From IMG/VR virus record IMGVR_UViG_3300032227_000453, positions 1 to 36,088 of that record: a DNA stretch of 36,088 nt. The stretch is one strand, 5' to 3'. Below the pieces are notes generated by a model. It worked only from the letters and a program-made list of their open reading frames with translations. It was not told the origin of the DNA and did no database searches. The stretch's first letter is position 1. Each line of letters opens with the position of its first letter. Made by a program: the position numbers and the translations under genes. Positions 1,100 through 5,752 of the stretch are shown here, in pieces. This stretch comes from a virus. Its lineage: Duplodnaviria; Caudoviricetes.

Positions 1100-1640
1100 T
1101 GGCTCCTCTTTCTATCGCATCGAGCGCATCAGCAAGAGCGCGGATGAACAAACCGGTGTGCGGCGCGTCCTTCCATAACGGGGTCTCCCATCGATCGACA
1201 ACCGCTTTAGCAGCCTCTGCCAGCTTGTTACGTTGTTCTTCGGTTTTTTTTCGCAACATTTCGGATGACAAAGCAAGGCGTTGCCACGAATCAAGTTGCT
1301 CTCGCGCTTCGTTACGTTCACGTTGCAGCTCCGCCATCCTATCGTTCAGGTGTTTGGCAGCGTCAGACAGAACCCGCCGCTCCTTCTCAGACTCCTCCAG
1401 CTTGCGTGCCAGCACGTCAGCCTTCAGCTTCCAGCTCATCGACTGGTTTGCCCAGCTCTCGCATTGCTCCTCCATCTCGGCGAGTTCACGTTCGAGCTGT
1501 CTAGCAAAAGTCGGCCATTCATACGTTGCGGGGGCTAGGCTACTTTCAAAGCCATACAAATCAAAGTGGCGAATGCCTTCTTCGTTTTGATCCGTCCTCG
1601 GTGTTGGTCGTAGTCTCATGGTTTTGAAGTTTTGATTCAC
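1092..1640 (-). CDS. Coiled-coil 'TPRTD...LERELA' family protein, paralog 2 (start GTG 1640 or ATG 1619)
   Basis: Shares N-terminus with 532-753 and a C-terminal module (VVDRWETPLWKDAPHTGLFIRALADALD) with 1887-2315. Confidence 0.75.
   Translation of the reverse strand: MNQNFKTMRLRPTPRTDQNEEGIRHFDLYGFESSLAPATYEWPTFARQLERELAEMEEQCESWANQSMSWKLKADVLARKLEESEKERRVLSDAAKHLNDRMAELQRERNEAREQLDSWQRLALSSEMLRKKTEEQRNKLAEAAKAVVDRWETPLWKDAPHTGLFIRALADALDAIERGANE
1119..1196. repeat. 78-bp perfect direct repeat, copy 1
   Basis: Identical to 1974-2051 by manual alignment. Confidence 0.9.
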
Positions 1641-1673
1641 CCGATCTTTGGCGAGTAATCTTGGATGTTAGCT
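1626..1673 (+). mobile_element. Array-head recombination site (attI-position, atypical attC-like), array 1
   Basis: R box GTTAGCT at 1667-1673; 32/35 nt identical to 4223-4257; short GATTCAC/GTAATC stem; no AAC-containing R''. Confidence 0.65.
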
Positions 1674-1877
1674 TGGAATTTCAATGTATGCGATTCCGTC
1701 ACATTTTTCGCAAATATATCTTTCTGCCGTGTCAGCATCGGCATTACATGGATTGCCATCTTCGTCGTATGCTTGGTATTCAATTCCATTGCTGTCGCAA
1801 GCCGGGCATTTGCGGAATCTTACTTCTCCGCATATTACCTGTCTTAGCCATTCGTTTGAGCATTCTGTGTATTTCAT
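1668..1877 (-). CDS. Cassette K1 protein, small putative Zn-binding protein (two CxxC)
   Basis: CPAC...CEKC; TAA stop lies in the R box at 1668-1670. Confidence 0.75.
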   Translation of the reverse strand: MKYTECSNEWLRQVICGEVRFRKCPACDSNGIEYQAYDEDGNPCNADADTAERYICEKCDGIAYIEIPS

Positions 1878-1965
1878 AAAAGACAGCTAACAAGACGCGC
1901 CATCCAACGGCGTGGGTGTCTCTAGTTGATTTGGTTGTCCTGCGCCACCGTGGATGCGCTTTGCG
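1668..1965 (+). mobile_element. Integron-type gene cassette K1 (298 bp) with inverted gene
   Basis: Begins G|TTAGCT; own R'' is AGCTAAC (exact reverse complement); ends with attC; visibly AT-richer than flanks. Confidence 0.85.
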
Positions 1966-1971
1966 TTCGGC
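1885..1971 (+). mobile_element. attC: attC site (87 bp)
   Basis: R'' AGCTAAC, spacer AAGAC, L'' GCG[C]CATC, C[A]ACGG ... CCGTG, L' GATGCGC, spacer TTTGC, R' GTTCGGC; canonical extrahelical C and A on the top strand. Confidence 0.9.
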
Positions 1972-2315
1972 GAATCGAGCGCATCAGCAAGAGCGCGGAT
2001 GAACAAACCGGTGTGCGGCGCGTCCTTCCATAACGGGGTCTCCCATCGATCAACCACCGCCCTAGCAGCTTCGGCCAGCTGGTCCCGCTGCTCCCGTGCC
2101 TCGGCTAGCCGCTCGATTTCGTCTAGCGATTCAAGCAGTCGCCCTTCTGCCACTGTTTTCCATTCGTCGCGGTCTTTTATCGCATCGGCGAGCTCGCGTT
2201 CAAGCTGGCGGTAAACATCCTCATGCACGACGCTGCAAGGTCGGCTGGAAATCGTGTCCACGCGGTCAATCGGCATCGCTGCCTCGTCAGTCCTCGGTGT
2301 GGGGGTGTCTTTCAT
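1887..2315 (-). CDS. 'TPRTD...LERELA' family protein, paralog 3; C-terminus encoded by attC
   Basis: 142 aa; reads through the whole attC and stops at TAG inside R''. Confidence 0.75.
   Translation of the reverse strand: MKDTPTPRTDEAAMPIDRVDTISSRPCSVVHEDVYRQLERELADAIKDRDEWKTVAEGRLLESLDEIERLAEAREQRDQLAEAARAVVDRWETPLWKDAPHTGLFIRALADALDSPNAKRIHGGAGQPNQLETPTPLDGASC
1974..2051. repeat. 78-bp perfect direct repeat, copy 2
   Basis: Identical to 1119-1196. Confidence 0.9.
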
Positions 2316-3379: not shown

Positions 3380-3610
3380 TCAGTTCGATTGATTGGTTTC
3401 CTCATAATCCGGCTCGACTGTAAAGCCGCTTTTGAGTTCATGGTGAAAAATGTAGGACGCTAGGGCGCGGTCGCTTTCCTCTTGGAGCCGGCTGCATCCG
3501 CCCTGACAAATCAGCGGACTCTCCACGATGAACACGGCCTCGACTCGGTGCCCTCCGATTAAGACCCACGCGTTTACCTTGATCCGGCGTTTCTTGCTTT
3601 TCTTTTTCAT
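3380..3610 (-). CDS. Hypothetical protein
   Basis: ATG at 3610 overlaps the stop of the DnaC-like gene. Confidence 0.6.
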   Translation of the reverse strand: MKKKSKKRRIKVNAWVLIGGHRVEAVFIVESPLICQGGCSRLQEESDRALASYIFHHELKSGFTVEPDYEETNQSN

Positions 3611-4227
3611 AGGCCTGACTGCTTTGCTTTCCTGAATGAGTCCCACTCGAACGCCAGCCCGCACCCGTTCTCCCTGATGCGGTCAAGGACAGCAGGTGAT
3701 AGTGACGCCGCGAGCTGCTTCCGTGGGTAATTGCTAATGATGATCGTCGGGCGTTCATGCTGGTAACGGGCATCGATGATGGAGGTGAGCTTGCTGTTCT
3801 CGAACTCCGTCTCAGCTCGTTCTTGGATTTCATCGATCACCAGGAGCGCGGCGTCAACGTAATTCTCCACGATTTCCTTCTCCGACTTCGGCGAGGCGTG
3901 GTGGTAGGACGACTTAATGTCAGAGAATAGGTTCACCGCCGTGGTGTAGAGCATCGGACGCTTGACCGTGGATGCCGTCCAGCCTACCCCGCCAGCCGAT
4001 GCGTTAGGGCGCGATGGCTTGTGGTTCTTTGCCAGCTCCCACGCCATCCTCGTCTTGCCGGTGCCATGCCCGCCGTGCATGATCACAATGCCACCAGAAT
4101 CGATCGCCGCGAGGGCTTGGGCATAGTTGGCGTGCCAGCCCGCCCCCTCGGCTGCAGGGGCGTTCTCGTAGCGTTTCGGGAATCCTTTGAGCGCGTTCAT
4201 GTTTCTGATTGGCGAACGATTGTTCAC
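3607..4227 (-). CDS. DnaC/IstB-like AAA+ ATPase (helicase loader-like); start GTG 4227 or ATG 4200
   Basis: Walker A GGHGTGKT, Walker B LLVIDE, 'IIDARY...PTIIISN...DRI' typical of DnaC/IstB. Confidence 0.88.
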   Translation of the reverse strand: MNNRSPIRNMNALKGFPKRYENAPAAEGAGWHANYAQALAAIDSGGIVIMHGGHGTGKTRMAWELAKNHKPSRPNASAGGVGWTASTVKRPMLYTTAVNLFSDIKSSYHHASPKSEKEIVENYVDAALLVIDEIQERAETEFENSKLTSIIDARYQHERPTIIISNYPRKQLAASLSPAVLDRIRENGCGLAFEWDSFRKAKQSGL

Positions 4228-4260
4228 CCGACCTTTGGCGAGTGAACTTGGATGTTATGC
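4211..4260 (+). mobile_element. Array-head recombination site (attI-position, atypical attC-like), array 2
   Basis: GGCGAAC...GTTCAC...GTGAAC-TTGGAT-GTTATGC; near-identical to 1636-1670; lacks the canonical extrahelical base. Confidence 0.7.
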
Positions 4261-4574
4261 TGGGAATTTTCCACCTCGACGTGCCCCGTGATAAATCCAC
4301 GTTTGGGCATTCTGGCGGAGTGCATGACCGAAAGAATGTCGATACAGGTGTCCACGTGGTCGCCGCGTTTCAGAGGCCCCATGGTGAAGTCTGCGAAGTC
4401 ATCCCACCCCGCTTCCCCGAGGTGTCCGGCAGCGAGCACGCGGTAGTTTCCGACATCGCCACCGCCGCGCATGTCTCCGGCTGTTCCGTCGTTTTCGATC
4501 TCCACTTGCAGGAGTTTGCGTTTTCGGGATTCGTCCCCCCGTGGGATCAGTTCAATGGTAATTCTAAGAGGCAT
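4224..4574 (-). CDS. Cassette K2 hypothetical protein
   Basis: 116 aa; ATG lies in R'' (GCATAAC); TGA overlaps the GTG of the DnaC-like gene inside the array-head site. Confidence 0.75.
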   Translation of the reverse strand: MPLRITIELIPRGDESRKRKLLQVEIENDGTAGDMRGGGDVGNYRVLAAGHLGEAGWDDFADFTMGPLKRGDHVDTCIDILSVMHSARMPKRGFITGHVEVENSQHNIQVHSPKVG

Positions 4575-4667
4575 AACAAGTCGTGGGTGAGCAACCGGGA
4601 TCAGCGGTTGAGTTCATTTTCGTGTTCTGGCTTTTGCACCGCTGATCCCGGTGCCACCACTATTGCG
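4255..4667 (+). mobile_element. Integron-type gene cassette K2 (413 bp) with inverted gene
   Basis: Begins G|TTATGC; own R'' is GCATAAC (exact reverse complement). Confidence 0.85.
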
Positions 4668-4673
4668 TTCTGC
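4571..4673 (+). mobile_element. attC: attC site (103 bp)
   Basis: R'' GCATAAC, AAGTC, GTG[G]GTG[A]GC[A]ACCGGGATCAGCGGT ... ACCGCTGATCCCGGT GC CACCAC, TATTGC, R' GTTCTGC; 15-bp perfect stem, three extrahelical bases. Confidence 0.88.
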
Positions 4674-4882
4674 TCAAATTTTTCCCAATGGTCTTTGTGG
4701 GTTTCGATCCATAGGGAGTGTTCGGGATTTGACCTCGGCGCGAATATCTCCATTCGTCCATCTTTCTTGCTGCGTCGAGCTTCAAGAACTCCAAGAGCAC
4801 CTGATTCCCATTCGGAAGACCGCAGAACAAAGCATCGCATCCGACGCCAAAAAGCATTCAGTTTGAATCGAAGTGTTTTCAT
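4601..4882 (-). CDS. Cassette K3 hypothetical protein
   Basis: 93 aa; starts inside its own attC and stops inside the neighbouring attC. Confidence 0.7.
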   Translation of the reverse strand: MKTLRFKLNAFWRRMRCFVLRSSEWESGALGVLEARRSKKDGRMEIFAPRSNPEHSLWIETHKDHWEKFEQNAIVVAPGSAVQKPEHENELNR

Positions 4883-4903
4883 GGCGCGGATGGATTTTGA
4901 TCG
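4668..4903 (+). mobile_element. Integron-type gene cassette K3 (236 bp) with inverted gene
   Basis: Begins G|TTCTGC; own R'' is GCAGAAC (exact reverse complement). Confidence 0.85.
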
Positions 4904-4909
4904 TTAGCC
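4822..4909 (+). mobile_element. attC: attC site (88 bp)
   Basis: R'' GCAGAAC, AAAGC, ATC[G]CATCCG[A]CGCCA ... TGGCG CGGATG GAT, TTTGATC, R' GTTAGCC; right spacer (7 nt) slightly long. Confidence 0.83.
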
Positions 4910-5154
4910 GAAAGAAATTCCAGCCATTCAGTGATTTTCACGGAGTCTGAGACGTGTTGCCCGCAGTCGAGAATATAGACAAACCTCATGTTTTCTGAGT
5001 CCCATGAGACTTGCGTGAGAATCCAGGCTTTAGGGCAGAACCTATCCACGAATCCGCCTTTTTCGTCGTGCGCGATGCTTCCCCACGAATCAAGAGCGGC
5101 TAACAATGCGTGCGAGGCAACGCCGACAACATCGTTCTTCGATTCGGAATTCAT
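4879..5154 (-). CDS. Cassette K4 hypothetical protein
   Basis: 91 aa; ATGA overlaps at both ends, each inside an attC. Confidence 0.75.
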   Translation of the reverse strand: MNSESKNDVVGVASHALLAALDSWGSIAHDEKGGFVDRFCPKAWILTQVSWDSENMRFVYILDCGQHVSDSVKITEWLEFLSANDQNPSAP

Positions 5155-5178
5155 TCGCGGCGTGCCTCCACTTGATCG
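4904..5178 (+). mobile_element. Integron-type gene cassette K4 (275 bp) with inverted gene
   Basis: Begins G|TTAGCCG; own R'' is CGGCTAAC (8-nt exact reverse complement). Confidence 0.85.
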
Positions 5179-5184
5179 TTCTTT
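5098..5184 (+). mobile_element. attC: attC site (87 bp)
   Basis: R'' GGCTAAC, AATGC, L'' GTG[C]GAGG, CA[A]CGCCG ... CGGCGTG, L' CCTCCAC, TTGATC, R' GTTCTTT; canonical extrahelical C and A. Confidence 0.9.
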
Positions 5185-5369
5185 CCAACAACCCTGCGGA
5201 CCACCTGCCAGACGGCGCGGATGACACCCCTACGCCACCATGGTGCCACGTCTCGCGTGGATCGGTATTCGACACCCCATGCTGGGGTGTAGCGTTTCGG
5301 CTCCTCGGGGCAGTGGCGGCAGGGGATGTGCCGACCGCACTTGCAGATGTATTCGTTCATGGTTTCCAA
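5151..5369 (-). CDS. Hypothetical protein (CxC...CxxC); C-terminus encoded by attC
   Basis: 72 aa; ends ...KNDQVEARRE* with ATGA overlap inside attC. Confidence 0.65.
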   Translation of the reverse strand: METMNEYICKCGRHIPCRHCPEEPKRYTPAWGVEYRSTRDVAPWWRRGVIRAVWQVVRRVVGKNDQVEARRE

Positions 5370-5704
5370 AGATTGAGGGTTCGCAGAAAGGCTTCGGCTC
5401 GTTCGGCGGCGGTTGCGCTAGCTACAGCAAAGTATCCCCATCCGTTTGGGGCGAATCCCTTTTCGTCGCGCTCCGGGCCGATGGTCATTCTTGCTAGCAT
5501 CTCGCCGTATTTGTATTCGAGTTTGGGGTTTGCAATAAAAGCAATTTCAGCTTCGTTCATCGCGTTTAGGTCGTTGAGGTAATCTGGAATCTCATGCATT
5601 CCGTCGGCTGAAAGCTTTGCGCCATTTGGGAAATGCCATTCGCCATCAGATTGATAAAACCCGCAGGCCTGCGCAATGGCGATTCGTTGTTCTTGCTCGT
5701 TCAT
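5357..5704 (-). CDS. Hypothetical phage protein
   Basis: 115 aa; 'IAIAQACG...IPDYLNDLNAM...ATAAERAEAFL' pattern common in phage early regions. Confidence 0.75.
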   Translation of the reverse strand: MNEQEQRIAIAQACGFYQSDGEWHFPNGAKLSADGMHEIPDYLNDLNAMNEAEIAFIANPKLEYKYGEMLARMTIGPERDEKGFAPNGWGYFAVASATAAERAEAFLRTLNLWKP

Positions 5705-5711
5705 GGCTTAT

Positions 5712-5752
5712 TGATTTACCAGTCCTTCAGCGAGTGAACCGGAGTGTTCATT
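5712..5752 (+). mobile_element. Third array-head-type site, apparently empty
   Basis: 26/37 nt ungapped identity to 4220-4256, including GCGAGTGAAC and GTT at the same register; intergenic. Confidence 0.5.

Follow-up and report, generated by a model that had tools for sequence, protein, structure and literature searches.

The early operon of a 36-kb phage very probably carries inverted, mobile gene cassettes of the integron type, which share a single reading frame and are likely moved by an integrase from outside the phage genome. The window, meaning the whole stretch of DNA analysed here, is the entire virus record of 36,088 bp; it is linear and about 50% complete according to CheckV, although the related records that possess terminal repeats are 37–40 kb long. 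Terminase and major head genes are encoded on the plus strand, and the early operon, including Erf, exonuclease VIII, a methyltransferase, a resolvase and a DnaC-like helicase loader, on the minus strand. Four cassettes (K1–K4) were found inside this operon, in two arrays, with attC sites of the Verrucomicrobia type.

Structure of the attC sites and short hairpins

Four full attC sites were detected, each supported by its box layout and by a scored finder, together with a short hairpin at the left end of each array:

1624–1673, plus strand: short hairpin D3a, left end of array 1, with GTT at 1667, frame-0 tail NIQDYSPKIG and GTGA at 1637–1640
1885–1971, plus strand = top strand: attC1, near-identical sites in other phage contigs
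4211–4260, plus strand: short hairpin D3b, with GTT at 4254, tail NIQVHSPKVG and GTGA at 4224–4227 (folding z −3.4)
4571–4673, plus strand = top strand: attC2 (folding z −5.9)
4822–4909, plus strand = top strand: attC3, with an ATGA overlap at 4879–4882 (folding z −2.65)
5098–5184, plus strand = top strand: attC4, with an ATGA overlap at 5151–5154

All four full sites have the layout R″ (RYYYAAC), 5 nt, L″, then L′, 5 to 7 nt and R′ (GTT). The finder was trained on 222 pattern hits, with attC2 outside the training set, and scored the four sites at 24–29; in 416 kb of shuffled sequence no site scored as high as 16. Although the search pattern did not include the AAC triplet, 42 of 61 unique viral hits had it where expected, 40 of them with the exact spacing. 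The scored finder replaced a first heuristic one, which overlooked attC2 when its settings were tightened and, over 646 kb, had 11 hits where shuffles had 8. Extrahelical bases, by whose canonical identity the attC bottom strand is set, are located on the left arm of the plus strand: read on the bottom strand they are G+T in site 1 and in site 4 and C+T in site 3, and site 2 has three bulges.

The 5′ GTTRRRY of each cassette (1667, 4254, 4667 and 4903) is an exact 7/7 reverse complement of the R″ box of the same cassette, in four of four cases. A 4/4 match between a cassette's own R′ and R″ boxes was likewise found in 118 of 147 viral cassettes, against 7 of 147 for composite sites. The 7/7 match is symmetric, hence orientation was taken from the travel of the 5′ site instead (see below). 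Sites 2 and 3 and the hairpin at 4211 fold better than their shuffles, whereas sites 1 and 4 do not (z +0.7 and −1.4). Folding energy was rejected as a strand test, as it did not tell top and bottom strands apart.

The hairpins at 1624 and 4211 are not full attC sites and are without a clear bulged base. A third copy (D3c) is described with the fifth removable unit below, and two of the three, D3a among them, fold no better than shuffles. D3a and D3b, with a 6-nt spacer, form the left ends of the arrays, unlike the attI-like motif of other phage and bacterial loci, and the content of relatives varies exactly there. Two exact-pattern scans of viral contigs returned no copy of the short site.

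Left array ends in eight other phage loci (L031, L059, L066, L089, L103, L257, L275 and L286) have an attI-like motif in common, which is close to one in the Verrucomicrobia loci L147, L182 and L185; on the mRNA strand it reads Asn-Ser-stop, often followed by ATG. Elsewhere in the window, positions 1071–1099 hold an AAC, 5 nt, GTT arrangement resembling a collapsed attC or simple site; gene 1092–1619 stops on a TAA within it and gene 812–1099 begins with an attC-like leader. A seven-mer at 775–781 is complementary to the R″-like box of the 4211 hairpin, 3.4 kb away, with a chance expectation of about 1 in 4.

Cassette genes and their orientation

The cassettes, their genes and the flanking phage genes are as follows:

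1668–1965, plus strand: cassette K1, crossover to crossover, 5′ GTTAGCT complementing its own R″ box 7/7
1668–1877, minus strand: K1 gene, 69 aa, Cys-rich, stopping on the TAA of the R′ box, with a weak Zn-ribbon Pfam match below cut-off
1887–2315, minus strand: upstream phage gene, 142 aa, last 26 residues encoded by attC1
3607–4200, minus strand: DnaC-like helicase loader (phrog_50), first gene behind array 2, conserved start ATG at 4200
4255–4667, plus strand: cassette K2, found elsewhere as the exact piece 4254–4670 and in loci L295 and L273
4224–4574, minus strand: K2 gene, 116 aa, ATG within the R″ box, 34 homologs with tails that vary after His-Asn
4601–4882, minus strand: K3 gene, 93 aa (cassette 4668–4903), start inside attC3, last 22 residues from attC2
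4879–5154, minus strand: K4 gene, 91 aa (cassette 4904–5178), leader from attC4, last 8 residues from attC3
5151–5360, minus strand: upstream phage gene of 69 aa that forms the fixed right flank of array 2; attC4 encodes its last 9 residues

A typical cassette gene points toward its attC, an arrangement that is usual and not obligatory. All four genes here point away from their own attC, and it is the 5′ site which travels with the gene. A preliminary description, made from the letters alone, had taken the plus strand as the attC top strand, with the four genes on the minus strand and an attC at the 5′ end of each, and had reported five genes crossing R′ with AAC read as Asn and stopping inside the site; both were reproduced at the same positions, as were the ATGA and GTGA motifs listed above. 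The two tails that it derived by in silico excision can be read directly from the native short hairpins. Its gene starting at 5369 does cross attC4, although that start is less likely than the ATG at 5360 (ATGA overlap; a relative, L001, starts there). Not mentioned there were the gaps before the next ATG at attC1 and attC2, the short form of the left-hand hairpins, and a sixth R′ crossing, that of the K1 gene (1877–1668), which stops on the R′ box with no read-through and whose ATG is 8 nt outside its attC.

The attC1-encoded tail also ends unrelated genes elsewhere, and the paralog at 1092–1619 of the 1887–2315 gene ends differently (repeat D1). Three paralogous coiled-coil genes (532–750, 1092–1619 and 1887–2315) share an N-terminal TPRTD motif and the repeats D1, D6 and D11, which are likely recombination hot spots. 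One joint, from 1623 to 1110, probably arose from repeat D6 and was not counted.

None of K1–K4 matched a PHROG family or an above-cut-off Pfam family. K2 and K4 gave folded models, the low-confidence parts being residues 1–12 and 87–91 of K4 (its leader and tail) and the end of K2; neither model had a Foldseek match in the PDB at E ≤ 0.001, and the K4 core had no usable match in the atlas. The phage might instead have captured ordinary bacterial cassettes; any true genes in them would lie on the plus strand, if there are genes at all, and the minus-strand frames would be shadows. This attC type is indeed also found on Verrucomicrobia chromosomes, and plus-strand ORFs of 60–230 aa overlap the region. 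These ORFs do not, however, fit the cassette bounds, whereas the minus-strand proteins have conserved families and, for K2 and K4, folded models; some homologs of K2, K3 and K4 also end without the Asn tail, those of K2 in loci with no called attC. A shadow origin is already largely refuted, and we give it almost no weight.

Protein tails are exchanged after the crossover Asn

The preliminary description had inferred swappable C-terminal tails and had suggested checking whether similarity between homologs ends at the Asn encoded by AAC; this was borne out for three families. His-Asn is present at the crossover in 13 of 34 K2 homologs and all 13 tails differ, as do all 11 tails among the 11 of 14 K3 homologs with Asn (15 hits, from which one 487-aa repeat protein was dropped). 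Asn is found in 25 of 34 K4 homologs, with 24 of 25 tails distinct, and leaders vary in this family too. The tail of the best K2 homolog resembles that given by attC4 in the window.

The Asn tail is lacking in the remaining K2, K3 and K4 homologs, and the K2 homologs in L297, L300 and L301 have no called attC alongside. The three families hence occur outside cassettes as well. The K2 homolog at L301:2501–2827, where no attC was called, lies directly behind a likely type I restriction specificity subunit gene, as read from its sequence.

Mobility of the cassettes in natural populations

An exact copy of 4254–4670, comprising K2 and its 5′ attC, is bordered by other sequence on both sides in 1.9-kb contigs from runs X2 and X3. 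These runs come from a study other than that of the likely source run X1; X2–X4 form one study and hence one population rather than three. A different attC arm precedes K2 in run X7. More distant copies of K2 occur in arrays with other neighbours: in L295, a 9-site array, K2 and its 5′ attC are 83% identical from 4254 into attC2, and in L273 identity is 76% from base 4254. Contigs of relatives end at 4256 and begin at 5177 (X3 and X4). Joints were found from 4256 to 4897 and from 4256 to 5177. A contig of 753 nt runs from the left site to K4 by way of some 415 other bases, and a second contig links 4256 with 5177; as the read joints give only their two sides, no empty array-2 site was seen directly.

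K4 was also found as a unit in other array contexts, and K3 only by its protein tails. The K3 stretch is without cover in X2–X4, which is not by itself evidence. No viral locus was found for the K3 or K1 proteins, and with no homolog locus found for K1, its mobility was not seen.

Travel of the 5′ site was assessed in 158 cassettes bounded by two full sites, which gave nine homologous pairs, one near-identical pair being dropped. The gene's 5′ site was more similar than the 3′-side site in seven of the eight non-identical pairs, hence the inverted reading is confirmed without recourse to the bulged bases. Taken together, these sequence comparisons support K1–K4 as probably real, mobile and inverted integron-type cassettes.

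The preliminary description missed a fifth removable unit, located at the ATG-AAC start of the gene beginning at 5360:

5355–5745, plus strand: fifth removable unit, gene 5704–5357 on the minus strand plus short site D3c, with a 6-nt direct repeat at 5355 and 5746
5700–5752: short hairpin D3c, third copy of the short hairpin and part of the fifth unit

The unit is skipped by a clean 391-nt deletion in X2 and X3, with a matching loose end in X3 and X4, and is absent in L001/L002. Its gene encodes 115 aa and belongs to a family with 1,362 homologs, and its hairpin encodes an 11-codon ORF.

Orientation and reading frame at phage and bacterial sites

Pattern scans gave 66 + 55 viral and at least 129 genome loci, to which 45 related-phage loci were added; 49 loci had short flanks. 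Nearly all genome titles among the matches listed (80) were Verrucomicrobia. The finder called 234 unique viral sites and, among the matches listed, 245 bacterial sites. The preliminary description had suggested scoring ORF orientation and frame in both groups. By ORF length, a noisy measure made with no gene caller, 181 of 227 viral sites were inverted and 34 standard, whereas bacterial sites among the matches listed were mostly standard (158 of 234, with 42 inverted).

A bottom-strand ORF of at least 50 codons reached 182 viral sites. It crossed in the Asn frame at 155 and in other frames at seven, and stopped at R′ at 20; the bacterial counterparts among the matches listed numbered 28, 39 and six. 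The frame across R′ is thus shared rather than random in phages, with 155 of 162 viral read-through genes in the Asn frame against 28 of 67 bacterial ones at the same attC type among the matches listed (Fisher p 6e-19). Taking one site per similarity cluster, the Asn frame was used at 80 of 82 viral and 8 of 21 bacterial sites among the matches listed; the sites represent two attC sub-types plus neighbouring sites, and the clusters are only partly independent of one another.

An in-site stop in frame 0 is present at 167 of 179 viral inverted sites and at 100 of 132 bacterial standard sites among the matches listed. Bacterial sites thus often have such stops as well, and part of the pattern is older than its use by phages. 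The in-site stop forms an ATGA at 59 of 179 viral sites against 3 of 132 bacterial sites among the matches listed, and 49 of the 59 open a frame of at least 50 codons.

Coupling of stops and starts

Overlap was seen at only two of the four full attC sites of the window; the next ATG follows the stop after 9 nt at attC1 and 26 nt at attC2, and the K1 gene ends 48 nt before the next ATG. When 182 inverted viral sites were compared with the longest downstream ORF, 43 had a −4 or −1 ATG overlap, 42 were within −20 to +15, 71 had a gap of more than 15 nt and in 26 the ORF was fused, ATG-less or started far upstream. The overlap is real and enriched at phage sites, yet it is the minority state.

The preliminary description had claimed more, namely that every order of cassettes gives a terminated upstream gene and a tightly coupled start, GTG starts at the docking sites included. 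Its termination and shared frame stood. Tight coupling is favoured by the ATGA enrichment (about 14-fold at phage sites), by 77 of 155 sites where a downstream ATG falls between −11 and +10 nt relative to the stop, and by the 4-nt overlap at 13 of 29 early-operon junctions, with operon limits as delimited in this analysis. A coupled start in any order found no support in that form, given the gaps in the window, the 71 of 182 sites with long gaps and the 20 of 182 upstream genes that stop at R′. The GTGs at both docking hairpins are in frame and open with the downstream genes (chance about 1 in 9), which favours that description, but among 33 DnaC loci of relatives, not all of them from separate contigs, 24 have an ATG matching 4200 and none has the nine-residue extension to the GTG at 4227. 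Relay mini-ORFs were not clearly enriched across sites (8 observed against 4.9 expected, p 0.07). We therefore judge coupling of every start in every order unlikely. What is independent of order is termination, plus the start geometry of each cassette's own site.

Two mini-ORFs were observed in the window, one in attC1 (1874–1903, minus strand, 9 codons), the stop of which overlaps the ATG of K1 as ATGA, and one in attC2 (4564–4617, minus strand, 17 codons), the stop of which overlaps the K2 start by 11 nt. In each case the mini-ORF begins 17 nt ahead of the point where the upstream stop ends.

Possible source of an integrase

A complete integron would possess an intI gene; no tyrosine recombinase (PF00589) match was found at E ≤ 1 in the record, which is possibly incomplete. 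With three attC sites within 620 nt and no intI nearby, the record fits the CALIN type of attC cluster. Full-length IntI-like genes were present in 6 of 50 related virus records, a subset of the viral array loci chosen for longer records, at 180–260 bits and thus under the 265 cut-off, and an integrase match was absent in 14 of 17 near-complete related records. Five of the six phage genes lie just past the left end of the inverted array, in canonical position and co-directional with the cassette genes. Phage IntI-like recombinases in L307–L312 were located inside early operons, adjoining replication genes. A recombinase gene adjoins arrays of the same attC type in the bacterial loci L150 and L158.

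The scarcity of integrases, in this record and in most near-complete relatives, could also mean that the sites are relics with no integrase acting now, and that phage homologous or microhomology recombination exchanges attC-derived sequence. The phage does have Erf and exonuclease VIII genes, a 6-nt direct repeat flanks the fifth unit where a gene starts, and the attC leaders differ between K4 homologs. Against this, boundaries fall exactly on G|TT despite about 50% identity between neighbouring sites, and bulged bases, spacers and 7/7 R′/R″ matches have all been retained. Relic sites thus seem to us rather improbable, and integrase-mediated movement of inverted cassettes is the reading followed below.

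A model of inverted cassettes in a phage operon

Every unit extends from a GTT crossover as far as the attC 5′ of its gene, and gene and attC travel together. Read on the mRNA strand, this crossover is AA|C, hence a gene in which AAC is Asn acquires its tail and stop from the site that happens to follow, and that site often also holds the start and leader of its own gene. Because tail and stop come from the following site, termination is independent of order for Asn-frame genes. A minority of genes, K1 in this window, instead use the TAA or TGA within the R′ box as their stop. How tightly a gene is coupled depends on the attC of its own cassette, with K3 and K4 tight and K1 and K2 loose.

Transcription of the array probably comes with that of the phage operon and not from Pc, and selection for uninterrupted translation may keep the shared frame, in-site stops and ATGA overlaps. 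The hairpins at 1624–1673 and 4211–4260 are candidate fixed docking sites replacing attI, and the enzyme may be the IntI of a Verrucomicrobia host or of a co-infecting phage, acting in trans. The layout likely lets genes be reshuffled inside the phage operon without breakage.

A broader reading, which we put forward tentatively, is that Verrucomicrobia phages run a mirror-image integron system of their own. They would draw on a shared pool of inverted cassettes, made of ordinary phage genes trimmed at both ends, with the translation convention (Asn frame, site-encoded tail, stop, start and leader) held in the site, and host or phage IntI would shuffle them in natural populations. If so, the fifth unit would exemplify capture at an ATG-AAC start, and with it the origin of new cassettes and docking sites.

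Integrons are bacterial tools, lately linked to phage defence; phages appear to use integron sites for their own accessory genes. The layout offers a way to shuffle promoterless genes within a translated operon and a natural case of protein ends swapped by site-specific recombination, which would explain the variable termini of many 'hypothetical' phage proteins. Pairs of cassette and non-cassette homologs bear on how cassettes are made.

Comparison with known systems

Comparative and population data give good support to a variant of the integron cassette system, in which frame locking and tail swapping appear to hold and universal tight coupling does not. A literature search, with most subscription papers beyond its reach, found no paper on inverted, frame-locked phage cassettes.

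The closest reported case is that of phage CALINs, attC clusters in phages with no integrase as here, five attC sites of which recombined with IntI1 (Qi et al. 2023, PMC9892861). Its supplement has 17 CALINs; the arrays presented in its main text have a typical cassette structure or divergent sites, and inverted genes, a fixed R′ frame and site-encoded tails are not described in that text.

Verrucomicrobia, noted as an integron-bearing phylum in the part of Cury et al. 2016 (PMC4889954) consulted, have sedentary chromosomal integrons (Luteolibacter, Akkermansiaceae) which, among the matches listed, share attC sequence type and box spacing with the phage sites and show the own R′/R″ match in 94 of 121 cases. 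Genes in those integrons differ, again among the matches listed, in mostly pointing toward attC (158 against 42 of 234), with no bottom-strand frame bias and almost no ATGA overlap.

Class 1 integrons have ORF-11 across attI1 and short ORFs in attC that give translational coupling, and, in the sections available of that source (PMC8876359), the frame crosses the crossover and the stop comes from the incoming cassette, as in the phage. The coupled frame there is a short top-strand leader, whereas here full-length cassette proteins are read from the bottom strand with swapped C-termini.

Lastly, inverted-integrase integrons of Treponema and others have intI co-directional with the cassette genes, as do the IntI-encoding related phages. 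As far as the available text of Cury et al. 2016 (PMC4889954) goes, it is intI that is flipped relative to attC in those integrons, whereas in the phages intI is canonical and the genes are flipped inside the cassettes.
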